DNA of 64,000 nucleotides from Christensenellaceae bacterium Phil1 (GCA_963595065.1 CAVBGJ010000007.1:26746-90745); one strand, 5' to 3'; positions 8,451 to 30,852 are shown, counted from the stretch's first letter. Notes: generated by a model from the sequence alone, not told the origin. Numbers and translations are program-made.

Positions 8451-8970
8451 CTATTCGTTCTTGAGCAAGCCGATGCAGTAGATCGGCGCGTAAAGAACCT
8501 TGTCAACACGCTGTATGTTTTCCGCACCGAGAACATACGCTGTATCCAAGTGATAGTTCTTCACGCCAAGGACGTTGTCTATCGCGCTATGCCGTCTGTA
8601 CGACTTCCCCGACTTCACTTCTATGGGAAACACTTCCCCATCCCTGTTCTCGATCACGAAATCGATTTCTCCCAGCTTCTTGCTGTTGAAGTAGTACAGG
8701 GGGGTAGCCGTGCGCTGCCAGCTCTTGGGCGACCACGCTTTCATACACGCTTCCATGGTTGGTTTCGGGCGTTTCTCCCAAAAGGCTGAAAGCCGTTTTG
8801 CGAGAATACGAGCTTGTGAGCAGACCCACATCTGAATAGAACAGCTTGAAAAGGTTCCGCTGCTTCGATGCCAACAGGGGGCTTGCCGGTGCTTCAACGT
8901 TGTAAACAGGCAGCGTGACATTGGCTGCGGATATCCATAGGAACGCATCCTCGTACGAACGCAGACAAAT
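8451..8970 (-). pseudogene. C-terminal fragment of AAA_14/DUF4143 ATPase, frameshifted
   Basis: 'KLFYSDVGLL...GSVYESVVAQELAAHGY' in one frame and 'LYYFNSKKLGEIDFVIE..PIEVKSGKSY' in another, with the shift at a G6 run (8699-8704). The Walker A region is missing. Confidence 0.85.
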
Positions 8971-8990
8971 CACCTGTTCAGAATAGGCAT

Positions 8991-9068
8991 ATGCCACTTT
9001 TTCCTACAATTTTACAGCTGAAATGCCACTTTTTCCTACATTAATTGAGGTGAATATGCCACTTTTCC
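8991..9068. repeat. 3x ATGCCACTTTT(T)CC, 32-33-bp period, upstream of the ATPase fragment
   Basis: Units start at 8991, 9023, 9056. Confidence 0.9.
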
Positions 9069-9113
9069 AACGGAAATCAACCACGTAGCAGATGGCGTGC
9101 GTTCCCCGTCCTA

Positions 9114-9300
9114 CTTGCGTTTTCCAACCCGAAATCGGGCGTTTTGCCTGCGTTTTCCACCCCGAAAACAGCCAAATCACTTGCGTTTTCCAACCGGGGT
9201 AGCTTGCCCTAGGGCATCGGTGGGCAATGGATTTTCGAAAAAACAGTAGCCAAGCTAACGAAAGCTAAAAAAGCTAACAAATGTTGGCGCCTGCTAACCA
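9114..9300. repeat. Repeat block with 3x C(T/C)TGCGTTTTCCA (33-bp period) plus AAGCTAA short repeats; duplicated near 11948-12102
   Basis: Units at 9114, 9147, 9180; about 155 bp nearly identical to 11948-12102. Confidence 0.9.
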
Positions 9301-9506
9301 GAGCTAAAAAAGCTAACGCATGCTAACTAAAATGAAAGCGGCTGCTTGGCTATTCCCTTATTCCCCATCGTTGCTCTTGCTTATTTCGGATACTAAGCAG
9401 CAAACAACCGTCCTACAATGGGAATGAGCGCAGGCAGCGTCTTTTCGGCCGCCATATCTACCAATTCCCTAGGTTCCGCTCGGCGGTTCGGTGATACAAT
9501 ACGGAA

Positions 9507-9585
9507 TACAAACGGTGCCCCGCTTACCCGGGCAGCATCGTCGACTTAAAACCAGGCTACGCTTCGAACTCTAGCCTGGTTTTTT
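9507..9585 (+). ncRNA. Putative type I antitoxin sRNA, copy 2
   Basis: TGaTACAAT at 9492-9500, same 5' sequence as copy 1, terminator AAAACCAGGCTA..TAGCCTGGTTTTTT. Confidence 0.6.
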
Positions 9586-9631
9586 ATTGCCAAGACACCG
9601 ATCACACCCTCCTCTCTGCCGCAGCGGGCCG

Positions 9632-9712
9632 TTAGCGCCGCTGGTTGGCGTTCAGGATTTCCAGGACTACAGTCAAAACCGCGCAGAGCGCGATGATCGT
9701 CTGAGGATCCAT
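9632..9712 (-). CDS. Putative type I toxin, 26-aa peptide MDPQTIIALCAVLTVVLEILNANQRR
   Basis: Last 26 codons of track ORF 9632..9976; SD AAAGGGGG; paralog of 8217..8297. Confidence 0.7.
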   Translation of the reverse strand: MDPQTIIALCAVLTVVLEILNANQRR

Positions 9713-9779
9713 GGCGAACACCCCCTTTCGGGGCTGCCCGGGTGCGAAACACCGCAGACTAGGGTACCAAAAGCGGGAG

Positions 9780-10013
9780 ATAAGCGTCCTGGTGGGCGCG
9801 CGCGGCACGGGCAAGACTACCCTGCTCTCGTACTTCGCCGACAAGGCCGAGGCCGACGGCTGGGTCACCGCACGTGTGACCTGCGTTGCCGGCATGCTCG
9901 ACGACATCCTTGTAAGAACCCGGCGCGGGGCAAAGCACTTCGTAGACACCCAGCCTTCAAGGAAGATCAAGTCCATCGGCCTGGAAGGTCTCGCCGAAGA
10001 ACACGATCTCTAA
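9780..10013 (+). pseudogene. Fragment of a different P-loop ATPase
   Basis: 'ISVLVGARGTGKTTLLSYFADKAEADGW' Walker A; no proper start and truncated after about 75 aa. Confidence 0.7.
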
Positions 10014-10104
10014 GCGCTCGTGCGCCATTGCCGTGGGGTCGTGGGGTTCGCACCGGTGCCAATTTTCCGGATTACGCTCGGCGGTTCGGTGATACAATAC
10101 GGAA

Positions 10105-10185
10105 TACAAACGGTGCCCCGCTTACCCGGGCAGCATCGGTTAATCAAAGGCCAGGCTAGCCGTCAAACCTATGCCTGGCTTTTTT
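10105..10185 (+). ncRNA. Putative type I antitoxin sRNA, copy 3
   Basis: TGaTACAAT at 10090-10098, conserved 5' part, terminator GCCAGGC..GCCTGGCTTTTTT. Confidence 0.6.
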
Positions 10186-10230
10186 CATGTCCAAATGCAG
10201 TCCACACCTCTTCCCTGTCAACCCACGCCG

Positions 10231-10311
10231 TTAACGGCGCTGGCTGACTTCGATGATCCCAAGTACAACCATAAGAATCGCGCAAAGCGCGAGAATAGTC
10301 TGATCGTCCAT
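10231..10311 (-). CDS. Putative type I toxin, 26-aa peptide MDDQTILALCAILMVVLGIIEVSQRR
   Basis: Hand-translated; SD AAAGGGGG in a hairpin; third paralog. Confidence 0.7.
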   Translation of the reverse strand: MDDQTILALCAILMVVLGIIEVSQRR

Positions 10312-10409
10312 GAGCGGCGCCCCCTTTCAAAAAAGGGCTGCCCAGGTGCGGAACACCGTAGATTAGAATATCAAAAAAGCAAGAGAAGTATGCCCAGCTT
10401 GGCGCACGG

Positions 10410-11705
10410 TTAAGCCCCCAATAGTGCCGCCGGGATCACCTGTACGCCATCATCGCGGGTATAGGCAAGGCTGCCGCGCCCCACCACAACGGCAAGGAAC
10501 GCAGGTTGAGCGGTTTGGGTCAACGGATTGGCGCACAGCTTATCGCGCAGCTTCAGCAAATTCCTTGCCCCATCATCAGCTTTCGTGTCGCTGAGCTTTA
10601 CCTCGATCGCGCCCCAAGACCCACCACGCTGAACGATTGCGTCCACCTCAAGGCCGTTCTCGTCACGATAATAGAAAACGTCATTTCCCAAACCTGAATA
10701 TGTTGACAAGAAAACCCGCAGGTCGCGTATAACCAGGTTCTCGAACAGCATGCCAAGGGTCTGCGTATCGTGCAAAAGACTCTCGGGCGCTGCGCCAAGC
10801 AAGGCACAGGCAAGGGATGGATCGCAAAAGTAGCGCTTGGGCTTCACACGCACCCTTGCCTTGGATCGCATAGGAGGTTCCCAGCCGCGCAGCTCTTCCG
10901 TAAGCTTCAGTCTGTCGAACAAGTCCAGGTAGGCAGCTATCGTATCCTCGCTGGGTTTCGCCTCGCCGCCCGCCATGTCGTTGGCAAGCGTCTTATAGGT
11001 AACGGCTTGACTCTCGTTCATCGCGAGCGCCCGCAAAAGCGCAAGGCCGGTCTGGGGCGACCTGCCATCTTCCAGCACATTGATGTCCAGAACAGATTGC
11101 ACGTACTGCCCCGCAGTTTCCGCGGCAGCCTCATCGGCGAGGCCAAGGTTCGCAGGCCAGCCGCCCCGGCAGCACCAGCGCGCCACATCGGCCAGACCGG
11201 TTTCCTTGCGAGCCGGAACAAGCCCATTGCCATTCAGTAACGCCGCAAGGGACACCCGCGCTTTCCCATCGCCCGATTCGCACAGAGCCATTGGACGCAT
11301 GGAAAGACGAGCGATTCTGCCTGTTCCGGAATGGCGCACTTTACCGCGGTCCCCGCGCCCCAACGAAGTTGAGCCGGTAAGCAAGAGCGCGCCGCGCTGG
11401 TTGCCCGAATTGTCCACAAAGCGCCGAGCCGCATCCCAGACTTCCGGCACTTCCTGCCATTCGTCCACAAGGTGAGGCTTATCGCCGACGAGCGCCAGCG
11501 TCGGGTCCATTTCCGCGGCTTCCCGGTCGGAAGGTTCGTCGAGCTTGGTCATCGACGATGCGCGCGTCATAGCGGTCCAGGTTTTGCCGCACCACTTCGG
11601 CCCGTTGATCTCCACGCAGCCGAATGCCGCCATAAGGGCATCGAGCCTGGTCTCTATAAGCCTTGGCCGATAGCCATCGGGGGTAAGCGTTTCCTTTGCA
11701 GCCAC
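10410..11705 (-). CDS. AAA_14/DUF4143 ATP-binding protein (ATPase, wHTH, PD-(D/E)xK-like C-terminus)
   Basis: Walker A GPKWCGKT, Walker B LVDEWQ, LLLTGS, C-terminal EVDAIV..AIEVK; GTG start after GGAAGGAG. Confidence 0.88.
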   Translation of the reverse strand: MAAKETLTPDGYRPRLIETRLDALMAAFGCVEINGPKWCGKTWTAMTRASSMTKLDEPSDREAAEMDPTLALVGDKPHLVDEWQEVPEVWDAARRFVDNSGNQRGALLLTGSTSLGRGDRGKVRHSGTGRIARLSMRPMALCESGDGKARVSLAALLNGNGLVPARKETGLADVARWCCRGGWPANLGLADEAAAETAGQYVQSVLDINVLEDGRSPQTGLALLRALAMNESQAVTYKTLANDMAGGEAKPSEDTIAAYLDLFDRLKLTEELRGWEPPMRSKARVRVKPKRYFCDPSLACALLGAAPESLLHDTQTLGMLFENLVIRDLRVFLSTYSGLGNDVFYYRDENGLEVDAIVQRGGSWGAIEVKLSDTKADDGARNLLKLRDKLCANPLTQTAQPAFLAVVVGRGSLAYTRDDGVQVIPAALLGA

Positions 11706-11754
11706 CGCGTTCTCCTTCCAATAATCCTTCAATCGGTATTTTACGCCATTTGCA

Positions 11755-11838
11755 TTCGGGAAAATACGGGAATCCTATTCGGGAGAATACGCACTTTCCG
11801 TTCGGGAAAATACGGAAATTTCAACCGGGAAATTACGC
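11755..11838. repeat. 4x TTCGGGAAAATACG core, exact 23-bp period
   Basis: Units at 11755, 11778, 11801, 11824, about 50 bp upstream of the ATPase start. Confidence 0.9.
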
Positions 11839-11914
11839 GTAAACAGAAAACCAGCGCCCTTAGCGACATTCGTGCATTGAAACAGCTATATGAGCAGGTG
11901 TTTCATTGAATCCG

Positions 11915-12102
11915 ATACGCTTTTCCATCCCGTTTTGCAGGGTTTCACTTGCGTTTTCCAACCCAAAAACAGCCAAATCACTTGCGTTTTCCAACCAGAG
12001 TGGCTTGCCCTAGGGCTTCGGTGGGCAATGGATTTTCGAAAAAAAAACAGTAGCCAAGCCAACAAAAGCTAAAAAAGCTAACGGATGTTGGCGCCTGCCA
12101 AC
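11915..12102. repeat. Second copy of the 9114-9300 repeat block
   Basis: CTTGCGTTTTCCAACC at 11948 and 11981, then ..GCTTGCCCTAGGGC..AAGCTAAAAAAGCTAAC. Confidence 0.9.
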
Positions 12103-12202
12103 TGAAACGAAACGGTCGTCACGGGTCGACCCTGTTCAATGGTCCGCTTTAGCGTGCTAAAGAGTGACTGCCCCCGATATGCCTCGCAGCGGCTCGTTCG
12201 TG

Positions 12203-13486
12203 CTACACGGTGAGACATGTTATGGGCAGGACGAACACGCCATCGCTGCGTCGCATCGCGTAACCCCCGGGCGTAACAACCGCGCAAAATGCCGGGTAGC
12301 CCATTACGGTTGTGTCGATCTTATCCCGCAGTTTCAAGAGGCTTGCGGCTCCCTCGTCTACGAACGAAGCACCGAGCTTCATTTCGAAAAGGGCGTATCT
12401 GCCGTCCCGAAGCTGGATAACAGCATCGGCTTCCCTGCCTGCATCGTCGTGGTAATGGAACACTTCCCCGGAAAGAGCTTGAGCGTAAACGCGCAGGTCG
12501 CGAACGCAAAGAGACTCGAACAGCAAGCCCAGCGTTGCCGTGTCCATAAGCAGCGATCTGGGGCTTGCGCCAAGCGCCGCAGCAGCAATGGAGGGACACG
12601 CATAGTGACGGGTTGGGGTTTTCGTTATACGCGCCCGCGCACGGTGCGATGGAGTCCATGCGGAAAGCTCCTGGATAACGTAGAGCCTGCGCAGAGCTGC
12701 CAAATACCCGTTCACCGTGTCGCGCGAAAGCTCGATGCCGCGCGCCTTCAGGTCTTTGTTGATGGTGGACTGCGTTGCTTGGGACGACGTTACCCGCGCA
12801 TACCCCCGCATGATTAAACGTGCATATTGGGGATTGCGCTCAACGCCGTCAACGCGGGAAATGTCCTGCTCAGCAATGGTGGCAAGGTAATCGCCGGCGA
12901 ATTCAAGCGCATCCTCTTCGTTCGGAAAGGTAACGGCACGTGGCCAACCGCCCCGGCAAACAAGGTAGGCGATGCGCTCGATGTCGCATTCCGAATAGCC
13001 GAAGCAATCTTCCTGCCCGTCGAACAGCGCGCCAAGGGAAACCTCGGCCGTCGAATCCTTGGATTCGGCAAGGCTCATAAGTCCCATATCGACAGAGGCT
13101 ATCCTCCCAGCACCGGAATGCGACGGAAGAGAGGTGGGCGTTGAAGACCCGGTAAGCAGGAACCGGCCGGGTTCGCTGTTGCCGTCAACAGCAAAGCGTA
13201 CAGCATCCCACAGCTGCGGAGCCTCTTGCCATTCATCGATAAGGCGCGGGGACGAGCCCTCCAGCAGCAGCGACGGTTTTGTTTGGGCTAGGAGCTGATA
13301 GTCCTTCCGTTTGTCGGGATCTTGCATCATGACCCAGCTGGATGCTTGTTGCATGGCAGACTGCGTTTTGCCGCACCATTTCGGCCCCCTGATTTCAACC
13401 GCGCCTATATAGCCGAGCTTCCGCTTGATAAGGGCGTCAGCGAAGCGGGGCAGGTAATGATCTGCATCCATTTTCTGATTAGCCAC
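12203..13486 (-). CDS. AAA_14/DUF4143 ATP-binding protein
   Basis: GPKWCGKT, LIDEWQ, FLLTGS, EADAVI..LFEMK; GTG start after AGGAAGGGG. Confidence 0.88.
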   Translation of the reverse strand: MANQKMDADHYLPRFADALIKRKLGYIGAVEIRGPKWCGKTQSAMQQASSWVMMQDPDKRKDYQLLAQTKPSLLLEGSSPRLIDEWQEAPQLWDAVRFAVDGNSEPGRFLLTGSSTPTSLPSHSGAGRIASVDMGLMSLAESKDSTAEVSLGALFDGQEDCFGYSECDIERIAYLVCRGGWPRAVTFPNEEDALEFAGDYLATIAEQDISRVDGVERNPQYARLIMRGYARVTSSQATQSTINKDLKARGIELSRDTVNGYLAALRRLYVIQELSAWTPSHRARARITKTPTRHYACPSIAAAALGASPRSLLMDTATLGLLFESLCVRDLRVYAQALSGEVFHYHDDAGREADAVIQLRDGRYALFEMKLGASFVDEGAASLLKLRDKIDTTVMGYPAFCAVVTPGGYAMRRSDGVFVLPITCLTV

Positions 13487-13512
13487 GGTATCCCCTTCCT
13501 GCGCAAACAACT

Positions 13513-13668
13513 GATTGCGGAGTTTTCAACCAACCGATTACGACGATTCTAACCAACCAATTGCGGAGTTTTCAACCAACCGATTGCGGAGTTTCTGACC
13601 AGCCGATTGCGGAGTTTCTGACCAGCCGATTGCGGAGTTTCTGACCAGCCGATTGCGGAATTTCTGAC
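13513..13668. repeat. Tandem array of 23-bp units GATTGCGGAGTTT(TCAACCAACC/CTGACCAGCC), 6 full + 1 partial
   Basis: Units at 13513, 13536 (degenerate), 13559, 13582, 13605, 13628, 13651; no spacers. Confidence 0.95.
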
Positions 13669-13732
13669 GGAAAAGTGGCATATTCGCCGCAAGAAATGCA
13701 GGAAAAAGTGGCAGATGCCTATTCTGAGCAGG
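13669..13732. repeat. Inverted copy of the 8975-9068 leader (2 units of GGAAAA(A)GTGGCA)
   Basis: GGAAAAGTGGCATATTC..GGAAAAAGTGGCAGATGCCTATTCTGAGCAGG matches the reverse complement of 8975-9068 minus one unit. Confidence 0.85.
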
Positions 13733-13765
13733 GGATTCTATGAACAAACGGTTTGCGCAGAAGAG

Positions 13766-13802
13766 CCTTAAGGAAGCATGAGCGCTTATGACTGCAAGGA
13801 GC
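13766..13802 (+). repeat. 37-bp direct repeat, left copy
   Basis: CCTTAAGGAAGCATGAGCGCTTATGACTGCAAGGAGC; one mismatch to 14969-15005. Confidence 0.9.
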
Positions 13803-13803
13803 T

Positions 13804-13846
13804 GCTTTCTTATAGCTATCTATATAATGCGTAGCTATAAGAAAGC
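13804..13846. promoter_or_regulatory. Perfect 15-bp inverted repeat enclosing TATAAT
   Basis: GCTTTCTTATAGCTA-tctatataatgcg-TAGCTATAAGAAAGC. Confidence 0.55.
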
Positions 13847-13946
13847 CCTCTTTGGCGAGCCGAAGCGTCAGAATGCCCTACTGTCACATCGCCCAGAATC
13901 GCGGTACCTTGTTAGCTATCGGCACAAAAACCGTCACAAAGTATTA

Positions 13947-14031
13947 AAAGTCGTTAGAAGAAATTAAGCCAACGCGAAAAAGTCCCTTGAAAAAAGTTTA
14001 GAATCTTCTATAAAGTCGCTTGAAAAAGTTA
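13947..14031. repeat. 3x AAAGTCxxTxGAAxAA, 32-33-bp period, upstream of ATPase
   Basis: Units at 13947, 13979, 14012. Confidence 0.8.
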
Positions 14032-14057
14032 CATAAGCGCAGTTGGAGGCTTGAATC

Positions 14058-14911
14058 ATGCTCAGGCGTAAAATAATCGATCAATTGGCCGCCTGGAAAA
14101 CAGACCCCGACCGTAAGCCGATCATACTCAAGGGCTGCAGACAGTGCGGCAAAACCTTTGCTGTGCTCCAGTTCGCACGCGAGAACTATGAGAATGTTGT
14201 CTATCTCAACTTTTTTCAGAACGCTAAGGCCAAAGAAGTGTTCGCGGACTCTCTCGACGTTGACTATCTTACGATGATGATATCAGCGCTCCTGGGCCCA
14301 CAAACCCGCTTCGTTCCCGGCAAGACCGCCATTGTCCTCGATGAGATCCAAGAGTGCCCCCAAGCGCGCACCGCTCTCAAATTCTTCTGCGTCGATGGAC
14401 GCTACGACATTATCGGCACAGGCTCGCTGCTCGGCGTTTCCGGCTATGGGGCAACTCCCGCATCGGTTCCCGTAGGTTACGAGACTGTTGTCGACATGCA
14501 TCCGCTCGATTTCGAGGAGTTCTGCTGGGCTTGCGGCATCAACGAGCAATTGATTGACTTGCTGCGCGGGTGCTTGGAGGAAACATCCTCAACGGCAGCT
14601 TGCACAGCTACAAGGGAGCCATCTTCGAGAACCTCATCGCCGATGTTTTCTCGAAGATGGGACGGAAGCTCTATTACTTCCATAAGGACTCGGGGCTTGA
14701 ACTGGACTTCGTGATCCGTTACAAAGGCCGCTGTATACCAGTCAAGGTCAAGGCAAACGACGGCAACGCCAAAAGTCTTAAGACCGTCCTCAAGCATCCC
14801 GAAAAGTATCACGTGGAAAACGCGATCAAGCTCGCAGATCTTAATGTGGGGCGCAGCGGGCCAGTCCTGACCCTGCCGCTCTATATGGCTTTCCTGCTGG
14901 ACGAAGCCTAA
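14058..14911 (+). pseudogene. AAA_14/DUF4143 ATPase with internal deletion and frameshift
   Basis: N-terminal GCRQCGKT/VLDEIQ to about 14580, joined out of frame to 'GAIFENLIAD..ELDFVI..IPVKVK'. About 280 codons in total versus about 430-455 in the intact paralogs. Confidence 0.85.
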
Positions 14912-14968
14912 GGCGCAGACGTACAGCCCTCGATCTTTTTCCGCAGAACCAGAAGCTCAGCAACAAAT

Positions 14969-15005
14969 CCTTAAGGAAGCATGGGCGCTTATGACTGCAA
15001 GGAGC
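14969..15005 (+). repeat. 37-bp direct repeat, right copy
   Basis: CCTTAAGGAAGCATGGGCGCTTATGACTGCAAGGAGC. Confidence 0.9.
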
Positions 15006-15067
15006 GTCAGAACGCCCTCGCTGCCGTGTCGGTTCAATCGCGGCCGCCGATTGGCTGCGCCTGCTCG

Positions 15068-16870
15068 CTATTCCTGCCCGTGAAGGTCCAGGTAGGCGCC
15101 GGTTTGGCGGCCCCAGAGGTGGGCGTATTCCCCGCCCTGCTCTACCAGCTGGGCATGCGGGCCGTCTTCCACGATCTTGCCGCCGTCCAACACCACGATG
15201 CGGTCGAGGTTGGCCACCGTGGAAAGGCGATGCGCCACCACGATGCAGGTGCGCCCGCGCATCAGCGTTTCCAGCGCGTCCTGCACCAGCTTCTCGCTCT
15301 CGGAATCAAGCGCGCTGGTGGCTTCGTCCAGCACCAGCACAGGGCAGTCGGCCAGCAGAGCGCGGGCAATGGCTATGCGCTGGCGTTGGCCGCCCGAAAG
15401 CTTCACGCCGCGTTCGCCCGTAACCGTATCGAAGCCCTGCGGCAGGCGCTCGATGAACTCCAGCGCATTGGCCTGCGCGGCAGCCTGGCGAACCTCTTCC
15501 CTGCTTGCCTCGGGCCGGCCGTAGGAAATGTTCTCGGCAATGGTGCGGTGGAACAGCAGCGCCTCTTGCGGCACGTAGGCAATCTGGCGGCGCAGGCTCT
15601 GCTGGGTGCAGTCGGCGATGTTCTGCCCATCCACCAGGATGCTGCCTTCCTGGATGTCGGAAAGGCGCAGCAGAAGCTTGGTCAACGTGGTTTTACCCGC
15701 GCCGCTCATACCCACCAAACCAACCCGCTGGCCTGCGGGAATGCTAAGGCAGAACTTGTCGAACACCTGCGTGCGCGTATTGCCATCGGTGTAGAAGAAG
15801 TCGATATCCTTGAACTGGATGGCGCCTTCGGTCACTTCTAGGTCGGGCGCACCGGGCTTGTCGTCCACCAGGCGCGGCTCGTCCAGCACAGCCGTCATGC
15901 CGCTGGCATCGCCGAAGGCGCGGTTAAAGCGCTGCAAGCCGTTGTTGATGAAGTTGAACTGGTTGGTGATGGTGTACGTGTAGGTGAACATCAGTACCAG
16001 CGTGCCCGGCGTGATACCGAACCACGCATTGCCGCCGGCGATGAACACGGCCACCACGCTCATGATGACCACGGTGATGCACGCGGTTATGATGCCGCGG
16101 GTAAGCGATGCCCACATGCGCTTCGAATCGCGCAGCACCACTTCCCTGTTGGCGGCGTCGAACAGCCCGCGCTCGTAGTCTTCGCGGCCGTAGGTTTTCA
16201 CCGCCAGGATGTTCGCCACCGAATCGGAAAGCTCGCCGGAAAGGTTGTTCTGCGCGCCGGCGGCTTTCTCGTTAAGCGACAGGATGCGCTTGTACATGTA
16301 GTACGAAACGCTGGCGTAGATAACCAGCAGCAGCATGAGGATGGCCACGTACAGCGGCACGCGCGGCGCCAAGATCCCGCAGGTGAACACGATAGAGCAC
16401 AGCACCGGCATGAACGGGAAGTTGATGGTCTCGATTATCTGGTTGTACGCGCTCATGAACTTGGAGGTTTGGCTTACCAGCGTGCCACCGAAGCGGTTGG
16501 AATGGAAGCTCATGCTCTGGTTGCACAGCGCGTCGAAGCTCATGGTTGCCAGGTCGTAGCTTGCGGCTATTTCCAACTTGTACAGCGTGTAGTCCTGCAG
16601 CTTGCTGGCGGCCTGGCCGAGCACGTTGATGAGTATGAGCGCCAGCACGAACGGCCCGTAGGCGGCGAACACCTGGCTGGCTTCCACCGGCTGGGCGCTT
16701 ACCTTGTCCACGATAAGGCTCATGACGTACGGGTTGCCGTAGGTAAGCAGCGCCACGAAGGCGAACGTGCTGAACATCAGCCCGAAGAAGTAGCCCTTGT
16801 GGTTCCTGGTTACTTGCCAATAGAAAAGCAGCGTGCGGCGCGTGGTTGATTGTTTCCTAGGCCTGCCCAT
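15068..16870 (-). CDS. ABC exporter, fused permease/ATPase
   Basis: TM domain, GMSGAGKT, LSGGQRQR, LVLDEATSALD; ATG 16870 overlaps the rsmA end. Confidence 0.92.
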   Translation of the reverse strand: MGRPRKQSTTRRTLLFYWQVTRNHKGYFFGLMFSTFAFVALLTYGNPYVMSLIVDKVSAQPVEASQVFAAYGPFVLALILINVLGQAASKLQDYTLYKLEIAASYDLATMSFDALCNQSMSFHSNRFGGTLVSQTSKFMSAYNQIIETINFPFMPVLCSIVFTCGILAPRVPLYVAILMLLLVIYASVSYYMYKRILSLNEKAAGAQNNLSGELSDSVANILAVKTYGREDYERGLFDAANREVVLRDSKRMWASLTRGIITACITVVIMSVVAVFIAGGNAWFGITPGTLVLMFTYTYTITNQFNFINNGLQRFNRAFGDASGMTAVLDEPRLVDDKPGAPDLEVTEGAIQFKDIDFFYTDGNTRTQVFDKFCLSIPAGQRVGLVGMSGAGKTTLTKLLLRLSDIQEGSILVDGQNIADCTQQSLRRQIAYVPQEALLFHRTIAENISYGRPEASREEVRQAAAQANALEFIERLPQGFDTVTGERGVKLSGGQRQRIAIARALLADCPVLVLDEATSALDSESEKLVQDALETLMRGRTCIVVAHRLSTVANLDRIVVLDGGKIVEDGPHAQLVEQGGEYAHLWGRQTGAYLDLHGQE

Positions 16871-17741
16871 GAAGCTCCAAGTACGCGCGCCCCAGGCCGA
16901 TGAAAGCCTCGCGCTCAAGCGATTCGCCGCGTGCCTTGGCCGAAACGCCGGCGCGGGCAAGCACATCGGGGATGTTGGCCAGCATAAGGCCGTCGGCAGT
17001 GGCCGGGTTGCTGAAATAGGTTTTCATGGAGTTGGCGATGGTCTTACGGCGCGTGGCGAAGGCGGCATCGGCCATGGTCATGGCGGCCGCACGCAGGCTG
17101 CCCTCCAGCTGGTCGGAGCGGCGGTCCATGCGGATAACGGCGCTCTTCACGCGCGGCGGCGGGAAGAAGTTACCCTCCGAAACGGCGAAGCGGCCATGGT
17201 ATTCGGCCAGCAAACCCAGCTTAACCGTGTAGGCGCCGTAGTTCTTGGTGCCCACCTTGGCGCACATGCGGTCGGCCACTTCGGCCTGCACCATAACGGT
17301 TTGGCTCTGCAGGCTCTCGTAGCGCTCGAAGAAGTCGAGGATGATGGTGGCGGCCACCGCATAGGGCAGGTTCGACACCAGCTTGTTCGGAGCGAAGGGA
17401 ACCTGGTCGGGCGAAACGGCCAGGGCGTCGCCGGAAATAAGCGTGAAGCCGCCTTCCCATTCGGCGCAGGTTTCCGCCAGCACGGCGGGCAGGTCGGCGT
17501 CCATCTCGATGGAGGCAACCTTGCCGGCGCGCTGCAGCAGCGCCACGGTAAGCGTGCCGATACCCGGGCCCACTTCCAGAACGTTGTCGGCCGGGCACAG
17601 CTCGGCCAGGTTGCAGATCTTTTCCACCACCCCATCGTTGATAAGGAAGTGCTGGCCCAAGGCCTTCTTCGTCATAAGGCCATGCGCTTCGAGCACGGCG
17701 CGGGTTTCCGATACGGAAGCCAGGTAAGAGAGCTTGCCCAC
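16857..17741 (-). CDS. rsmA: 16S rRNA adenine dimethyltransferase
   Basis: KKALGQHFL, VLEVGPGIGTLT, VSNLPY, FFPPPRVKSAV. Confidence 0.95.
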   Translation of the reverse strand: MGKLSYLASVSETRAVLEAHGLMTKKALGQHFLINDGVVEKICNLAELCPADNVLEVGPGIGTLTVALLQRAGKVASIEMDADLPAVLAETCAEWEGGFTLISGDALAVSPDQVPFAPNKLVSNLPYAVAATIILDFFERYESLQSQTVMVQAEVADRMCAKVGTKNYGAYTVKLGLLAEYHGRFAVSEGNFFPPPRVKSAVIRMDRRSDQLEGSLRAAAMTMADAAFATRRKTIANSMKTYFSNPATADGLMLANIPDVLARAGVSAKARGESLEREAFIGLGRAYLELHGQA

Positions 17742-18283
17742 TAGGCACCCCACTTTCCCAAACAATCAGGACGGATAGTCTTAAGCCCCACCAGGGGCAC
17801 CACTTCATCGATGGCGAAGCCCGCCAGCGCCATGCTGGAGCGCACGGTTGCCACCAGCGGGTCGAAGCCATGCGGGTCGCCGCCGTCGCCCACCACGAAC
17901 AGGGTGAGCGGGCGCTTTTCCGCCGGCGGAAGGCCGGCGCGCTTGCGCTTCAGGTACTCCCAGAAATACGGCTGCATGCGGTCCAGCACGGCCTTCGCCT
18001 GCGAGGGCGCGCCCGCGAAGTAGATGGGAACAACCATCAGCACATGCTGCGCCCGTTCCAATTGGGCCAGAAGGCCCGTCATATCGTCTTCGTAGATGCA
18101 CGTGCCCGCCGTTTCGCAGAAGGCGCAGCCGTTGCAGCCTTCCACCTGGGAAGCGGCAACCTCGAACAGCTCGCATTCGTCCTGCGGGCAGGTGCGCTCC
18201 AGGTACGCGGTAAGCAGGCGCACCACCCGGGCGCATTTGCCGTTGATGCGCGGACTGCCGTTGATGATGAGCCACGTGCCCAT
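17741..18283 (-). CDS. Flavodoxin family / NADPH-dependent FMN reductase
   Basis: INGSPR, CxxCxxC-x5-C, PIYF. Confidence 0.85.
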   Translation of the reverse strand: MGTWLIINGSPRINGKCARVVRLLTAYLERTCPQDECELFEVAASQVEGCNGCAFCETAGTCIYEDDMTGLLAQLERAQHVLMVVPIYFAGAPSQAKAVLDRMQPYFWEYLKRKRAGLPPAEKRPLTLFVVGDGGDPHGFDPLVATVRSSMALAGFAIDEVVPLVGLKTIRPDCLGKWGA

Positions 18284-18289
18284 GGGTGC

Positions 18290-19363: not shown

Positions 19364-19380
19364 CCGACAGGCCGTTTCGG

Positions 19381-20967: not shown

Positions 20968-21102
20968 GCTCTCTTCCTTGGCGGAAACGACCGATGATAT
21001 CGCCCGCCTGTTGAATGGATGAATCTTAGTGGTGCGCCCCGCGAAAAGCTGTTGGGGCATACGGTTCGATAGTTTACCACTGGCAGCACGCCAGCCAGCC
21101 CA

Positions 21103-21546: not shown

Positions 21547-21787
21547 GTTCGTTCCTCCTTGGTTGCTTGGCAGCTGAATGCCTGGATGCATTCGTTGTCC
21601 CCGATACCGTACCACGCCAACATGGAGCTGCGCTGAAGGGCGCACGGGGCAGAATCCATGGCAAACCCATAGAGAAAGCGGGTTGAACGGGTTCGCCGGT
21701 TATAGAATAGGAACATTCATCACCTAACCGAACAACTTGCTTTGCCGCGCACCCCTCCGTGCGCGCTTGCGCATGGGAAGGAACACC

Positions 21788-23191: not shown

Positions 23192-23375
23192 CGGCAGTGG
23201 GGGAGCAAGGCCGACCGCGGGCGGTGAAGCTCGGCCCCTGCCGCCCGGGCCGCCGCCGAGCACGGCACCCGCAGCCGCCCCAACGCCCTTCGCCCGCACG
23301 GCAACCCCCCATCGGCCGCCCCGCACCGGCCTACCGAAGCAAGCAACCGATCCCGTCTAGAAAGGCCTCCCTCCC

Positions 23376-24776: not shown

Positions 24777-24845
24777 CGCAGAAGCCCCGCAAACTTGGCG
24801 GTTCGTATATCATCAGAGCCGAACGAATTGAAAGGAACGCGAAAG

Positions 24846-26342
24846 ATGACCGACCAGCAAAAGCCCGTCCGCGTACGCTTCGCCCCCTCGCCCACCGGCG
24901 AGCTGCACATCGGCGGCGCACGCACCGCAATCTTCAACTGGGCGTTCGCCCGTGCAACGGGCGGCACCTTCATCCTGCGCATCGAGGATACCGACCCCGA
25001 GCGCTCCACGGAAGAGAACAAGCAGGTTATCCTCCGCGGCATGCGCGGCCTTGGCCTGAACTGGGACGAAGGCCCCGAGGTGGGCGGCGAGTACGGCCCC
25101 TACCTGCAAACGCAGCGCTTCGACACCTACACCGCCGCGCTGGAGCGCCTGAAGGAAAAGGGCGCGGTGTACCCCTGCTTCTGCACCAAAGAGGAAATCG
25201 ATGCCAAGCGCGCCGCCGCCGAGGAAAGCGAAGGCGGCTATTCCGGTTACGACCGCACCTGCCGCTGCATCCCCGCAGAGGAAGCGCAGCGCCGCATCGA
25301 CGCCGGCGAGCCGCACGTATGGCGCCTGAAGGTTCCCGAGAACCACGGCCCCATCGAGTTCGACGACGCGGTGTACGGCCACATGAGTTTCCCCGCCGAC
25401 GTTATGGACGACATGATCTTGGTGCGCACCGACGGCACCCCCACCTACAACTTCGCTGTGGTGTGCGACGACACCAACATGGCCATAACCCACGTTATCC
25501 GCGGCGACGACCATCTTTCCAACACCCCGCGCCAGATCCTTATCTACGAGGCATTGGGCTATGAGGTTCCCACTTTCGCGCACCTTTCCATGATCCTGGG
25601 CTCCGATGGGCGCAAGCTTTCCAAGCGCCGCAACGCCACCAGCGTGGAGCAGTACCTGAAGATGGGCTACCTGCCCGATGCGCTGGTGAACTTCCTTGCG
25701 CTTCTGGGTTGGAGCCTGGACGGTGACACCACCATCATCCCGCGCGACGTGCTGTGCCAGAACTTCAGTCTGGACCGCATCACCAAGAAAGACGCCATCC
25801 TGGACGAGACCAAACTGGACTGGATGAATGGCGAGTACATCAAGGCCATGGGCGCCGGCGCCTGGGTCGATGCCGTGGCACCGTTCCTGGTGGAGGCCGG
25901 CCTTGCCACCGAGGAAGACATCGCCGCGCGCCACGACTGGTACGAGAAGCTGTACCCGCTGGTTGCCGAGCGCATGAAGCGCCTTACCGAGGCGCCCGAG
26001 AAGCTGGCGTTCATCTTCGCCGGCGATAGCGTCGAGCTGGACGAGAAGTCGGTGCAGAAGAACCTGTTGAAGGAAGGCTGCCGCGCCGACGAGGTTCTGG
26101 CGGAAGTGCGCGCCATCCTGGCCGACGAGAGCATTCCCTGGGAATGCGACCCGCTGCAAGATACGGTTGCCGAGCTGGCAGAGAAGCTGGATTTGAAGAA
26201 GAAGCTCATCTTCCAGCCCATCCGCGTTGCCATCACCGGATCGCAGGTTTCGCCGCCGCTGTTCGAGTCCATCGAGCTGATGGACCGCGCCACCGTGGTT
26301 GCCCGCCTGGACAATTCCATCGCAAAGGTGTTCGGTGCCTAA
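24846..26342 (+). CDS. gltX: Glutamate--tRNA ligase
   Basis: VRVRFAPSPTG, HIGG, KLSKR. Confidence 0.97.
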   Translation: MTDQQKPVRVRFAPSPTGELHIGGARTAIFNWAFARATGGTFILRIEDTDPERSTEENKQVILRGMRGLGLNWDEGPEVGGEYGPYLQTQRFDTYTAALERLKEKGAVYPCFCTKEEIDAKRAAAEESEGGYSGYDRTCRCIPAEEAQRRIDAGEPHVWRLKVPENHGPIEFDDAVYGHMSFPADVMDDMILVRTDGTPTYNFAVVCDDTNMAITHVIRGDDHLSNTPRQILIYEALGYEVPTFAHLSMILGSDGRKLSKRRNATSVEQYLKMGYLPDALVNFLALLGWSLDGDTTIIPRDVLCQNFSLDRITKKDAILDETKLDWMNGEYIKAMGAGAWVDAVAPFLVEAGLATEEDIAARHDWYEKLYPLVAERMKRLTEAPEKLAFIFAGDSVELDEKSVQKNLLKEGCRADEVLAEVRAILADESIPWECDPLQDTVAELAEKLDLKKKLIFQPIRVAITGSQVSPPLFESIELMDRATVVARLDNSIAKVFGA

Positions 26343-27852
26343 CGCACCCGAACAATCCGCTTTCCCCAACGCCGCCTGCGCCACCCGCACAGGCGGCGTT
26401 GATTCGCTTGCGCCCGAAACCGGGCTGACGTTCGACGCCCAAACGGAAGAAGAGCTGATAGAGCAGATCGTTGCCGCGGCGAAGCAGATGGAAGAGGGCG
26501 AGGGTTCGCCGGGTGGCGAAGGAGCGGCCATTGGCAACAACGGGGGCGTGCCCGCTTACGATGAGAGTACGGCTGGCGAGAACGCTGCTGTTGCCGGCGA
26601 AAGTGCGGCTGGCGAGGACGCTGCTGCTGGCGAGGGCACGGCTAGCAGCGGTGCGGTGGCCTCCGAGAGCGACGTTTCGCGCTCGGAAATCGGCAACGAC
26701 ACTGCAGGGAATTATGTCCCTGGCGAGTCTAATACCTTGTCAAGCGATGATTCGTACGCGGATCCCGACTCTGCTGCTGAAGCCGCCAACGGCGACACAA
26801 CAGGCGAACCCGAAGAAGATGCCGAGCCCTTCCCCCGCGAGCGCATCGTTGCGCTGCCCTCTTGGTGCACCGCGCCGCGCGGATCCGGCTGCACACGCTG
26901 TGCCGCGGCCTGCCCCGCCGGCGCCATAGCACTCGATAGCGGGGCGCCCGTCATAGACGAAGAGATATGCGCCCGGTGTGGCATATGCGCCGGGGTGTGC
27001 GATGCCTTCGCCTGGGAGCGCTTCACCCTGAAGGACCTGTTCGAGCGTGCCCGCACGGAAGCCGAAGAAGAAGGAAGCGCGTGCTTCACCTGCAACGACC
27101 ACCTGTTCCCCGGCGTGGTTCCACGCAGCAACGTATTCGTGCTGCCCTGCCTTGCCGCCGTGCCGCCGGAGTTCTGGACGGCGCTTCTGGCGGCCGATGT
27201 TCCGGTAAGCCTGTACCTGGATGAAACGTACTGCGAAGGCTGCCCCACTGCAGGAGCCATGGGGCCCGCCCTGTTCACGCACGCGCTGGAGTCGGCGCAA
27301 GACAGCACCGGCAACAGCATCCGCCGCGTGAAGGCGCTCCCCGAGCGCGAGCTGCTGCTTACCGCATGGTCGCACGCCGAGGGGCAAGACCGGCGCGGGA
27401 TGCTTTCCACTCTGTTCCACGAGAGCAAGGAAGTGGCCGACGGAACGCACCGCAAGCGCAACGCCGCTGCGGTGAGCGATTTCCGCGAGAAGCAAGAGCG
27501 CATGCACGCCATGGCGCGCATCAGCAGCGAGGAATCGGCGGGCTCTGCCTGGATGCCCAGCAAGCAGCCGTGGCCCCGCCAAGAGCTTATGGTGCAGGCG
27601 GCGAAAGCCATCCCCGTGCGCGCTGCGCTTATGGAGCGCTACTGTTCCACCACCGACTGCCAGAAGTGCACCGGCGCCCGCGAATGCGTGGAGGCATGCC
27701 CAACCGGCGCACGCACCGCAGCAGCCGACGGCACCTGCCCCGAAGTGGACGCCGCGCTCTGCATAGCCTGCGGCTCCTGCATCGGCAGCTGCCCTGCCGG
27801 CGCCTGCGATTTCACCGCCATAACCGCACAGGCCTACTGCGCCAAGGAATAG
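26335..27852 (+). CDS. 4Fe-4S binding protein with acidic low-complexity N-terminus
   Basis: Several CxxCxxCxxxC(P) motifs; start uncertain. Confidence 0.75.
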   Translation: MPNAPEQSAFPNAACATRTGGVDSLAPETGLTFDAQTEEELIEQIVAAAKQMEEGEGSPGGEGAAIGNNGGVPAYDESTAGENAAVAGESAAGEDAAAGEGTASSGAVASESDVSRSEIGNDTAGNYVPGESNTLSSDDSYADPDSAAEAANGDTTGEPEEDAEPFPRERIVALPSWCTAPRGSGCTRCAAACPAGAIALDSGAPVIDEEICARCGICAGVCDAFAWERFTLKDLFERARTEAEEEGSACFTCNDHLFPGVVPRSNVFVLPCLAAVPPEFWTALLAADVPVSLYLDETYCEGCPTAGAMGPALFTHALESAQDSTGNSIRRVKALPERELLLTAWSHAEGQDRRGMLSTLFHESKEVADGTHRKRNAAAVSDFREKQERMHAMARISSEESAGSAWMPSKQPWPRQELMVQAAKAIPVRAALMERYCSTTDCQKCTGARECVEACPTGARTAAADGTCPEVDAALCIACGSCIGSCPAGACDFTAITAQAYCAKE

Positions 27853-28083
27853 GCTGCCGCCGCCCCTTCCGAACGGCGAAAACCGTCGATGCCGCTCAGC
27901 CCTGGGCTCGGCTGCCGCAAGAGCAGACGATGCAGCACGCTTCCCGCCATCCCAGCCGTCGTCTCAAACAACCCAAACCAAGCCCCACCTTTACGCATCC
28001 GTAACCGTTGAGACTGCAAGCATACTGGCGCGGTAGTATTCTCTGAGCAGTCTGAACACGGCATCTGCGCTGAAAGGAACATC

Positions 28084-29244
28084 ATGCCCCGCACACCCGA
28101 TCCTTCTTACTGGGGAAACCCGCCGCAGACACCGGTATCGAAATACGCGCCCCAGCGCACCGGCCGCCAAGCGAACAGCAACCAGCCTCCCGTTCCTCCT
28201 GCCCCAACGGGCAACTACGGGGCCGAGCAACCTGCCGGCTCGAGCCAGCAGCAACCGCAAACCGCCCCGCAAGCACAGCAAACCCCCGGCCAAGCCGATC
28301 CCGGCACCCAGCACAACGCGGCGCAAGGCGAATCCTCCCAGCAGCAGAGCGCTGCAGCATCCGGCTTCAACTACGCCCAGCTGAACACGCCGCCAACGCC
28401 TCCCTCGCCCCCGAAGAAAAGCAACAGGGGCATCATCATCGCCATAGTTGCCGCTATCGTTGTGCTGCTCCTGGGTATGGCGGGGTGCTCCGCCTGCACG
28501 GTAGCCCTCAGCAGCGGCGCCAGCAATTACCTGGGAAGCACATACAGCAACCCGCAGAACATCCCCTCTTTCGACAACGACCAATACAGCAGCACTCCCG
28601 ATACGGAAAGCGATCAAGCGTACCTCAACGCCCAGACACGCAACGCCTTCGACCTGCAGGGCTCTTCCGCCCTTTCCGAAGAAGAGCTTTCCCAACTGCA
28701 AGCAGATTTCTTCGGCGGAAGCTCGAACGCCCCCAACGCCGAAGGCATCTACCCGCAAGGCATATTCCACGTGGGCACCGACCTTCCGGCTGGAAGCTAC
28801 TGGTTCAGCGGCAGCAGCTCTGACCTTTCGTACTTCTTCATCCTGCAGCCCACTTCCGATGGCGCCAGCACCTACAATGCCGTGCACGTGAACACCTACT
28901 ACGGGCACAACCTTATGAATCTGGAAGACGGCGAGGTGCTCATACTGGTGAACAACGGCACCATGACGCCTATCGCCAAGATGACCCAGCAGTTCACCTC
29001 GCCCTACGGCAGCGGCGTGTACCGCGTGGGCATCGACATCCCCGCGGGATCGTACCGCGCAATCGTTGGCGATGGCGCCGATACCTACAGTGCCTACTAC
29101 GTGATGAGCGACCTAGACTACCGCGACGACAGCTTCATCGAAAGCAATTACTTCGTTTCAGGCGACAGCGGCACCGAGATCATCCTGGAAGAGGGCACCT
29201 ACGTGGAGCTCTACAACATGCGCCTGGTAGCCATCCTCTCGTAA
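28084..29244 (+). CDS. Membrane-anchored protein with Pro/Gln-rich N-terminus
   Basis: Single TM helix; twice-repeated 'G.(F/Y).VG.D.PAGSY' motif. Confidence 0.75.
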   Translation: MPRTPDPSYWGNPPQTPVSKYAPQRTGRQANSNQPPVPPAPTGNYGAEQPAGSSQQQPQTAPQAQQTPGQADPGTQHNAAQGESSQQQSAAASGFNYAQLNTPPTPPSPPKKSNRGIIIAIVAAIVVLLLGMAGCSACTVALSSGASNYLGSTYSNPQNIPSFDNDQYSSTPDTESDQAYLNAQTRNAFDLQGSSALSEEELSQLQADFFGGSSNAPNAEGIYPQGIFHVGTDLPAGSYWFSGSSSDLSYFFILQPTSDGASTYNAVHVNTYYGHNLMNLEDGEVLILVNNGTMTPIAKMTQQFTSPYGSGVYRVGIDIPAGSYRAIVGDGADTYSAYYVMSDLDYRDDSFIESNYFVSGDSGTEIILEEGTYVELYNMRLVAILS

Positions 29245-29301
29245 AGCCTGCAGCGCATGCAGGTTGCGGAGACGGACAGCCAGACGGCCGAGCACTATCG
29301 C

Positions 29302-29323
29302 GTGACAAAGGGGTCTGTCCCTA
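29302..29323 (+). repeat. Direct repeat left of ATPase cassette
   Basis: GTGACAAAGGGGTCTGTCCCTA; the copy at 30944-30966 differs by one substitution and one insertion. Confidence 0.75.
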
Positions 29324-30691
29324 GCTGAACACCACTTCCGGCAGATGGATTCCCGGAGCGCGGGTATCAGCTTCTTCGGAAAGGCACATAGTCATGTAAA
29401 GGGGCAGGTAGCACACCGGTTTCCCTTTGCGCTGACCAACCGAAACGTTGTACTCCGAAAGGACATACGCGCATTCAATGCTGTAGCCTTCGGTTCCCAA
29501 AAGGTTGTTCAAGGCAGTGTGCAACTTGTAATCCTTGCCCGATTTCACCTCTATAGGCAGAACGGTTCCCCGCTTTGTCTCGAGCAGGAAGTCAACTTCG
29601 CCTTTGCGGCTGTGGTGGTAGTAGTACAGGCTGAAGCCTGCCGCCGCCAGCTCCTGCGCCACCACGTTTTCGTAGACGGCGCCGTAGTTGCCATCTCCTT
29701 CGCCCAACACAATGTCCATCGAGGCAGACTGCGGGTAACGGGCAGCAAGCATTCCGCAATCAGAGGCATACAGCTTGAACTTCCGCTGCTCCTTGGTGCG
29801 CATCAACGGCATCTTCGGCTCAGTAACCGCATAAACGGGAAGAGCCACGCCAGCCTCTGTCAGCCAAGAAAAGCTGTCCTGCAAACGAGAGTACCGACCG
29901 TTTTCGGCAACCGCCTTCATGGCGAACCGCTTGTTTTCCTTGGACAACTGAGCAGGGATGTTGTCGTATATTGCCGCGATGTTCGTTTTCTGGTCGCCGG
30001 CGTACTTCGTTATGTCTCGGCGATATTGGTTCCCAATCTCAGCAGCAACGGCCTGAGCCGCACCAAGATCCCGCTGGTTCTGCACGAATGCCTCCACCGC
30101 TTCCGGCATTCCGCCCACCACGATGTATTGGCGATACAGGGCCATCAAAGCCTGATGCAGATTTTCCTCAAGCGGCTCCTTGCTTTCGTAGGCATGCCGA
30201 ACCTGGGCAATAACCGCAGGAGGAACGCTCATTGCCCAACAGAACTCCTCGAAATCCAGCGGGCACATACGCTCTTCGCGGGCATAACCAACCGGAAACG
30301 ACTTCACCCCCTGGATGAACGTACCCAAAAGCGAGCCCGAAAGAACCAGGTCGAAACGGCCGTCTTCAAGCAGGTACTTCGAAAGGGTTACCACTTCCTT
30401 GCCGAATTCCTGGACTTCATCGAAGAACACCAGGGAGTTGTTTGCTATACCGCCCGCAACCAGGGAAAGACGCGAAACCAAGTCTTCGGCACTAGTGGCT
30501 GCAGAAAGCAGGCGGGCTGCATCCGCATCCTGACGGAAGTCGACTTTAACGAAATGCTCGTACTCGTTGCGGGCAAATTCTTCAACGATGAACGTTTTAC
30601 CCGTTTGACGAGCGCCGAACAGAAGCAGCACCTTGCGCTTTTCGGTCTGTTTCCAAGAAAGCAGCTTCTCATACATCTTCCTTTTCAACAT
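29321..30691 (-). CDS. AAA_14/DUF4143 ATP-binding protein
   Basis: GARQTGKT, FFDEVQ, SGSLLG, VGGMPE, EVDFLLE..PIEVKSG. Confidence 0.9.
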   Translation of the reverse strand: MLKRKMYEKLLSWKQTEKRKVLLLFGARQTGKTFIVEEFARNEYEHFVKVDFRQDADAARLLSAATSAEDLVSRLSLVAGGIANNSLVFFDEVQEFGKEVVTLSKYLLEDGRFDLVLSGSLLGTFIQGVKSFPVGYAREERMCPLDFEEFCWAMSVPPAVIAQVRHAYESKEPLEENLHQALMALYRQYIVVGGMPEAVEAFVQNQRDLGAAQAVAAEIGNQYRRDITKYAGDQKTNIAAIYDNIPAQLSKENKRFAMKAVAENGRYSRLQDSFSWLTEAGVALPVYAVTEPKMPLMRTKEQRKFKLYASDCGMLAARYPQSASMDIVLGEGDGNYGAVYENVVAQELAAAGFSLYYYHHSRKGEVDFLLETKRGTVLPIEVKSGKDYKLHTALNNLLGTEGYSIECAYVLSEYNVSVGQRKGKPVCYLPLYMTMCLSEEADTRAPGIHLPEVVFS

Positions 30692-30769
30692 GCGGTACCC
30701 CTTCCCTAGAGTCCAGCGACGTCACAGCTCGAACTTGGCAGCGGTTGCCGAGAAGCGTTCGAGCCTGCC

Positions 30770-30852
30770 TTTGTCACTAAAACAGAAAGAATTATCGCAT
30801 TTTTGTCACTAAAACAGAAAATATTTCGCTTGATTTGTCATTAATACGGAAA
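30770..30852. repeat. 3x TTTGTCACTAAAACAGAAA, 32-bp period, upstream of ATPase
   Basis: Units at 30770, 30802, 30834 (third degenerate). Confidence 0.9.

Follow-up and report, generated by a model that had tools for sequence, protein, structure and literature searches.

Private arrays of phased repeats upstream of AAA_14/DUF4143 genes as candidate self-operators in Christensenellaceae bacterium Phil1

The iterons of theta plasmids are head-to-tail repeats spaced 22–23 bp, roughly two helical turns, which lie in 4–7 copies beside the Rep gene. They are bound by the winged helices of Rep, take part in its self-repression and have lineage-specific sequences. In the partition systems ParR–parC and TubR–tubC, a phased upstream array is bound cooperatively by the product of the operon and doubles as operator, again in lineage-specific form and without cross-talk. 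The binders in partition operons are small adaptors of the ribbon-helix-helix or winged-helix type, with a separate motor gene. Here we describe phased repeat arrays upstream of genes for AAA_14/DUF4143 proteins, which combine an ATPase, a winged helix and a predicted C-terminal nuclease. They were found in a stretch of 64,000 nt (the window) from Christensenellaceae bacterium Phil1; the genome analysed comprises 1.87 Mb in 41 contigs. An Rfam match to the L31-Coriobacteria leader and the best relatives, from Eggerthellaceae and Collinsella, assign this genome to Coriobacteriia.

PADLOC models and both Pfam domains identify the window genes as members of the defence candidate PDC-S01 (COG1373). 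According to the accessible part of its description, PDC-S01 ranks fourth in abundance among prokaryotic defence candidates, and about 39,000 instances have been detected (PMC12988326). In the accessible parts of the publications, PDC-S01 is described solely as a gene of defence islands, and upstream repeats, DNA binding and regulation are absent from the descriptions (PMC12988326; PMC3424549; 10.1101/2024.09.26.614923). Anti-phage activity is unproven: as far as the available text of that study goes, four of eight candidates tested in Escherichia coli B protected against T7, T5 or T4, and the one PDC-S01 gene was not among them (10.1101/2024.09.26.614923). DUF4143 is listed within the PD-(D/E)xK nuclease superfamily with function unknown in the part available (PMC3424549). 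The accessible literature on DUF4143, PDC-S01 and COG1373, supplements aside, contained nothing on upstream repeats or function.

Arrays were scored by autocorrelation (match +1, mismatch −1) at periods of 10–50, with 200 dinucleotide shuffles as the null, and were called independently by Tandem Repeats Finder (TRF). The initial annotation had listed five AAA_14/DUF4143 genes or relics in the window, each with an upstream array of 23-bp or 32–33-bp period. All five arrays were recovered at these periods, four by TRF and the fifth, which TRF did not call, by autocorrelation (Table 1). The family genes outside the window, on contigs C16, C21, C37 and C10, each have a 32–33-bp array directly upstream, so that arrays are found at nine of the nine AAA_14/DUF4143 loci of the genome, all of them chromosomal. 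Among genome-wide TRF arrays with a period of 18–45, five AT-rich ones scoring at least 80 lie upstream of family genes and a sixth in the same island. The arrays are AT-rich in a genome of 55–65% GC, and are located where promoters and leaders lie. A search of Rfam revealed no RNA family in the island. In the C21 gene (about 24990–25030), the ATG and the first nine codons are out of frame, which makes it a frameshifted pseudogene or an assembly error.

Table 1. AAA_14/DUF4143 genes, relics and repeat arrays of the window.
Feature	Position	Strand	Basis
Relic of a clade-A AAA_14/DUF4143 gene: frameshifted C-terminal 170 residues (~258–427), ATPase part deleted	8451..8997	-	Pfam, blastx
Array of relic 8451..8997: three GGAAAAAGTGGCA boxes (gene sense), period 32–33	8989..9068	-	TRF (8989–9066, period 32, 2.4 copies); 0/200 shuffles
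Gene-less array immediately upstream of 8989..9068: three TGGAAAACGCA boxes, period 33	9113..9195	-	TRF
Intact AAA_14/DUF4143 gene, GPKWCGKT type, clade B	10410..11732	-	Pfam, PADLOC PDC-S01, tree
Array of 10410–11732: ~four units, period 23	11742..11838	-	TRF (period 23, 4.2 copies); score 28, 0/200 shuffles
Second copy of gene-less TGGAAAACGCA array: two boxes (11941–11995), inside duplicated 180-nt segment	11937..12000	-	Direct repeats
Intact AAA_14/DUF4143 gene, GPKWCGKT type, clade B	12203..13510	-	Pfam, PADLOC PDC-S01, tree
Array of 12203–13510: ~seven units, period 23	13513..13668	-	TRF (period 23, 6.8 copies); score 100, 0/200 shuffles
Second relic: inverted copy of GGAAAAAGTGGCA array (two boxes, 13660–13737), leader, start codon and few codons, no gene behind	13660..13780	+	Inverted repeats
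Array of 14058–14911: three AAAGTCnnTTGAAAAAGTT boxes at intervals of 32 and 33 bp	13947..14031	+	Autocorrelation (period 33, score 14); 1/200 shuffles (13979–14027)
Deletion derivative of a GCRQCGKT-type clade-A gene	14058..14911	+	Pfam, blastx
Intact AAA_14/DUF4143 gene, GARQTGKT type, clade A; protein used for model	29321..30691	-	Pfam, PADLOC, AlphaFold2
Array of 29321–30691: three TTTCTGTTTTAGTGACAAA boxes (gene sense), period 32	30770..30852	-	TRF (period 32, 2.6 copies); score 25, 0/200 shuffles

The arrays adjoin the start codons. From the proximal array end to the predicted start codon, the median distance is 26.5 nt in either period class; the array of the 29321 gene ends 78 nt before the start codon, and in several loci of Bacteroidia the last unit lies within a few bases of it. 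A promoter scan placed two promoter-like sites facing the gene inside arrays: TTGAAA-18-TAGAAT at 13575..13546 and TTGAAA-18-TAAAGT at 13987..14016.

The likeness to iterons is closest for the two period-23 arrays (4–7 units), which are direct repeats beside the gene of a predicted binder. Unlike iteron systems, the genome has a second spacing class of 32–33 bp, and unlike Rep the proteins carry an ATPase and a nuclease domain; no Rep family was found among the Pfam matches of the window proteins. Also unlike plasmid iterons, up to nine chromosomal copies occur per genome, and homologues were found in just 60 of 72,556 plasmid records. The window loci differ from partition operons in having neither a partition partner nor a plasmid context.

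The repeated boxes are private to each gene within this genome. Boxes of 18–23 nt, searched with up to three mismatches, match only their own arrays in the 1.87 Mb, apart from one three-mismatch match which we read as chance, and paralogues within one cell carry unrelated boxes. The TTTCTGTTTTAGTGACAAA box is unique in the genome, and the TGGAAAACGCA box occurs only in its two gene-less arrays, apart from two matches with two mismatches. Box and gene are inherited together. At orthologous loci of three other species, the 19-nt box AAAGTCnnTTGAAAAAGTT is kept in every unit (3–4 units) at an exact spacing of 32 bp while the 13-nt spacers differ between species. The relic at 8451..8997 shows 74–77% identity in two frames to a gene from Sphaerochaetaceae (L095) in blastx, and the two loci share the GGAAAAAGTGGCA box, unit number and leader. 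The TTGGAAAAnnGG box is common to much of the clade-A crown, including Bacteroidia, Clostridia, Akkermansia and others. The presence of this box in clade-A genes across phyla indicates joint transfer of gene and array, and shows that boxes are clade-specific rather than gene-specific. The claim that each gene has its own repeat sequence stands within this genome and does not always hold beyond it.

The period follows the protein clade. A quick, midpoint-rooted FastTree phylogeny of 124 representatives, clustered below 75% identity, splits into clades A and B with a support of 100. In clade A, whose proteins have about 440 aa and carry the motif VGGMPEAV, the period is 32–34 in 38 of 43 rows, and two more rows are best at 33 below threshold. 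In clade B (81 rows), the GPKWCGKT subclade has a period of 23 bp in five rows and of 46 bp in one, and the Coriobacteriia GPRQSGK[ST] subclade has 23 bp in five of five. On this tree two switches between 23 and 33 bp suffice, while 300 label shuffles needed 10.9 on average and never fewer than 8. This was the comparison of period with clade that the initial annotation had proposed, and its outcome agrees with the expectation that the period tracks the subfamily.

To survey relatives, we combined an unselected Pfam search of the order of the window, 80 genome loci from the clade-A alignment, 80 metagenome loci from the GPRQSGK[ST] alignment and an unselected phylum sample. We scored the 400 nt preceding the P-loop codons and called an array at a score of at least 14. 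TRF alone under-detects arrays in distant relatives (nothing in 134 of 181 upstream regions) and was replaced by the autocorrelation score, which was checked against downstream regions and shuffles. In the downstream control, 28 of 151 regions were at or above threshold, with scattered periods except for ten at 29 bp. Among the seven intact genes of the own genome, the period is 32–34 in five and 22–24 in two, none having another period or no array. The own order (26 genes) has eight at 32–34, nine at 22–24, three at other periods and six without array; one of the two main periods is thus present in 17 genes. In the clade-A genome loci (n = 81, many phyla), 64 have a period of 32–34, one of 22–24, four another period and 12 none. 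The metagenome GPRQSGKT loci (n = 67) are different: none has a period of 32–34, one has 22–24, five have another period and 61 lack an array.

In this largely array-less GPRQSGKT clade, an inverted repeat beats all 20 shuffles in 36 of 64 non-redundant representatives. These palindromes are mostly 25–45 bp long (many 31–37 bp), single, and located just before the start codon, where arrays would be, which fits a conserved habit of binding the own promoter (a predicted activity). The phylum sample of 24 genes contains eight arrays (four of period 22–23, one of 46 and three of 32) and six strong inverted repeats; the remaining ten genes have neither. The original statement that every AAA_14/DUF4143 gene has its own array is contradicted by these counts. 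As the GPRQSGKT clade uses a palindrome and ten phylum-sample genes show neither feature, many members of the family have a private upstream site, but direct-repeat arrays belong to certain clades and not to every gene.

The three intact window proteins have AAA_14 (PF13173) above cut-off with the Walker A motif GxxxxGK[TS], DUF4143 (PF13635) at 98–118 bits, and matches to the PADLOC PDC-S01 profiles with E-values of 5.6e-64 (10410–11732), 2.4e-65 (12203–13510) and 5e-172 (29321–30691). NCBIfam has no family for the AAA_14/DUF4143 proteins of the window, and a sequence search of solved structures gave no match to them. Partial architectures occur elsewhere in the window, with AAA_14 above cut-off and its Walker A motif at 14058–14714 (+), and partial DUF4143 matches for the C-terminus at 14570–14911 (+) and 8451–8948 (−); a second DUF4143 piece of the latter relic sits in another frame. 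The gene at 14058–14911 has lost about 156 residues, including the lid and the winged helix, relative to a relative (L023) with 87–90% identity. The blastx alignment with L023 spans residues 2–164 and 321–429 in two frames, and the internal deletion rules out a simple frameshift. An open reading frame at 14981–15841, which was at first taken for a target gene, is probably not a gene, because it has no Pfam match and lies almost wholly opposite the gene for an ABC transporter (15068–16966).

We modelled the protein encoded at 29321–30691 with AlphaFold2 on an alignment of 39 sequences (mean predicted local distance difference test score 89.6, predicted template modelling score 0.90). The model consists of a five-stranded P-loop core (1–155), a helical lid (156–231), a winged helix (helix 267–279 and two long strands) and a C-terminal alpha/beta domain. 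This last domain carries E341, E365, E381 and K383, which are invariant in the 39 clade-A sequences, and the nearly invariant D367. They fall on helix 337–350 and strands 364–371 and 377–382, core elements of the fold. In the model, the protein carries the conserved PD-(D/E)xK catalytic residues, and nuclease activity is predicted. The C10 copy lacks the E-x-K motif.

In a Foldseek search with this model, the best structural matches overall were the archaeal ATPases SSO1545 (2fna) and PABY2304 (2qen), with E-values of about 2e-8 to 5e-8 and template modelling (TM) scores to the target of 0.53–0.54. The titles of these two entries mention neither function nor repeat arrays. The Pfam family ATPase_2 gave a weak hit of 16 bits; as this is below the cut-off of 33.2 bits, the window proteins are related to that family without belonging to it. 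Next, at ranks 3–4 (E-value 4e-7), came Cdc6/Orc1 bound to origin DNA (2qby, 2v1u), followed by ORC, CED-4/Apaf-1 and RuvB, and chains of ORC/Cdc6 are found throughout the top 50. The best match to a DNA-bound fold is thus Orc1/Cdc6 on origin DNA, in line with the likeness proposed earlier. AAA+ core, lid and winged helix follow each other in the same order, and repeated boxes beside the own gene are a further parallel, binding being predicted in our case. However, the global superposition is poor (TM score 0.26–0.28), and Pfam and NCBIfam revealed no membership in Cdc6/ORC, only sub-threshold hits to RFC and IstB. The window proteins differ further by the additional C-terminal PD-(D/E)xK domain and by the large number of paralogues in a genome, each of which has a separate box.

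Residues linked to the box were sought by comparing 15 clade-A proteins with TTGGAAAA boxes with the other 24, requiring conservation of at least 85% in the first set and at most 25% in the second. Four columns passed: K181, N262, K266 and K278. N262, K266 and K278 belong to the predicted recognition helix or its immediate surroundings; the ATPase and the nuclease contain none of the four. The placement of three of four columns at the winged helix has a hypergeometric p of about 0.02 (calculated by hand). We regard this as modest support for a role of the winged helix, because the proteins with TTGGAAAA boxes come nearly all from one clade. Taken with the private boxes, the retention of a box while spacers drift, the sharing between relic and L095, the agreement of period with clade and the Orc1/Cdc6 fold, these residues favour the earlier proposal that gene and array form a cognate module.

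The arrays exist, are private in this genome, are inherited with the gene, have a period that tracks clade and adjoin the start codon. It seems to us likely, if some way from certain, that each array, placed within about 80 bases of the start at 23 or 32–33 bp by clade, is an operator on which the winged helix of the gene's own product docks and represses the promoter. The winged helix would read a box of about 14 nt in the 23-bp class or about 19 nt in the 33-bp class. Neighbouring protomers would touch via their AAA+ domains, the spacing being fixed by the oligomer geometry of the clade, and a phased row of protomers could form on the array, in which occupied promoter-proximal units would block RNA polymerase. 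Such self-repression would hold a potentially harmful ATPase–nuclease at a low, self-limited level, and unlike boxes would keep up to nine paralogues per cell from cross-regulating.

Several observations weigh against an operator of this kind. Autoregulation alone accounts neither for the gene-less arrays nor for those at rearrangement junctions. No sigma-70-like site was found by the promoter scan in the array of the 29321 gene, and the scan overall yields no more sites than shuffles. The array-less environmental GPRQSGKT genes and the ten phylum-sample genes with neither array nor palindrome also count here. Three of the four box-specific columns are at the predicted winged helix, but this signal comprises four columns only, and in pairwise comparison box similarity correlates with domain identity about equally for all four domains (rho 0.47–0.53), none being singled out. 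The period has exceptions in the C10 gene (period 32 on a long clade-B branch) and in L241 (GPRQSGKT type, period 32). Moreover, any inherited trait is expected to cluster on a tree, and with about two independent events the tree is no proof that geometry dictates the period.

The arrays could, beyond being operators, serve as loading or parking sites which hold the ATPase–nuclease inactive on self DNA, the nuclease being freed when an invader causes loss, titration or remodelling of the complex, as in a DNA-anchored defence or addiction switch made of one gene. Invading DNA is the usual guess for the target of a nuclease among defence candidates. Conservation of the catalytic E, D and E-x-K residues in the 39 clade-A sequences suggests that the nuclease is probably active and in need of restraint. 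Up to seven units per array go beyond the needs of simple repression, and the likeness of the fold to Orc1/Cdc6 points to an ATP-dependent assembly on DNA. Genes of the family are found embedded in defence islands, the basis of PDC-S01 in PADLOC as far as its description is available (PMC12988326), but in the accessible text of the E. coli B study the one PDC-S01 gene was not among the protective candidates (10.1101/2024.09.26.614923). Also, nothing like the arrays was found in the phage collection, and plasmids gave one weak, short match. This lone hit lies inside a transposase gene of a Rhizobium plasmid and was read as chance, and copying of the arrays from a phage or plasmid was rejected. 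We consider parking sites rather unlikely. It is doubtful, too, that the family works as a one-gene switch in its full form, with an ATPase–nuclease that would be harmless on its own array and freed by an invader to cut DNA, two spacings reflecting two oligomer architectures, and up to nine paralogues serving as independent sentinels.

A role of the arrays as sites of mobility or recombination would parallel that of transposase binding sites stacked in a transposon end. Gene and array would then be a selfish cassette, with nuclease and ATPase acting at the repeats in homing, integration or excision, which we judge unlikely. At the site of the module at 29245–30980, two genomes of the genus have 347–378-bp intergenic regions without it, and a third has an unrelated gene of 556 codons (G058:C5:7225-9413; locus L052 1493-3163). 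However, the site lies between two conserved genes and is a hotspot of variable cargo; different cargo per species fits an ordinary hotspot. Two modules are flanked by direct repeats (29303–29325 and 30942–30968; 13757–13802 and 14960–15005), but the repeat flanking the 29321 module is dispersed in the genome at several unrelated sites. As the empty sites show wholesale intergenic replacement and the flanking repeat is dispersed, defined mobile ends for this module were rejected and no mobility mechanism is readable. The gene has repeats on just one of its sides; neither a second end nor a short, exact duplication of the target was seen. Relics are truncated right beside arrays, one array is also present as an inverted second copy, and gene and array crossed phyla at 74–77% identity; a published list of genes which gut genera have in common includes COG1373, in the part of it available (PMC10782964). 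On the other hand, each box occurs at a single locus in the genome, so there is no sign of recent copying, and homologues are rare on phages (13 of 50,697 records) as they are on plasmids. The relics, the gene-less arrays and the presence or absence of the 29321 module leave room for a component of mobility.

Finally, the repeats might be bound by another factor or be free of protein, as sites of a host regulator, phased bent DNA aiding the promoter, or repeats in a 5′ untranslated RNA. Their AT-richness at promoter or leader positions would suit such roles, as would the last units that nearly reach the start codon in Bacteroidia. Against this, boxes are unrelated between paralogues of the same cell. 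Proteins of different clades have different boxes, which accompany the gene into phyla with other host factors, and the period tracks the protein clade and not the host. In addition, the protein's own winged helix has group-specific residues in its predicted helix which track the box. We hold an explanation by other factors to be highly improbable, and the self-operator remains our preferred reading.

Further repeats were noted around these modules. The 46-nt direct repeat at 13757–13802 and 14960–15005 (89% identical) brackets the array and the deleted gene at 13947–14911, and a hairpin with a 14-bp stem (about 13806–13846) follows its first copy. The 29321 module is flanked at 29293–29328 and 30930–30968 by two direct copies of the dispersed repeat, which is about 35 nt long and has the core AAAGGGGTCTGTCCCTA. 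This repeat is also found at 12140–12175 and on G000 contigs C1, C6, C8, C36 and C38, with a convergent pair about 400 bp apart occurring twice on C36.

A second ATPase family, with a weak AAA_16 match and a C-terminal winged helix (HTH_24, 367 aa), is encoded on G000 contig C1 at 132889–134108 (L213), and has upstream an array of about eight TTCTAAAnAG units with a 10-bp period. A truncated relic of this family is located in the window at 9761–10010 (+), and a 40-nt fragment is repeated at 8350–8389. Similar 10-bp GCTAAC/GCTAAA repeats were seen at 9252–9330 and 12049–12090. At its end, G000 contig C13 carries a gene of 90 codons without Pfam match, immediately preceded by 3.7 copies of a near-perfect 21-bp repeat (51157–51233, L214). 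The island also contains three copies of a gene for a hydrophobic peptide of 26 codons (MD.QT..ALCA....VL......RR) at 8220–8297, 9632–9712 and 10231–10311, all on the minus strand. Each lies beside a conserved 106-nt unit ending in a terminator-like hairpin (8041–8146, 9451–9556 and 10049–10154), a triplicated layout which resembles, by analogy, a type I toxin with its RNA partner.

New in the present analysis are the presence of both spacing classes in one genome, the tree test of period against clade, the palindrome clade, the residue signal at the winged helix, and the relic and gene-less arrays. A conserved private DNA site per gene is a first concrete handle on the PDC-S01 family. The array is the predicted ligand for binding, footprinting and cryo-electron microscopy studies, and the predicted specificity helix could be swapped between paralogues. 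The paralogues and their boxes are predicted to form a natural set of orthogonal protein–site pairs. Assays in which the gene is cloned without its native upstream array, or in which self-repression is ignored, may misjudge the system.

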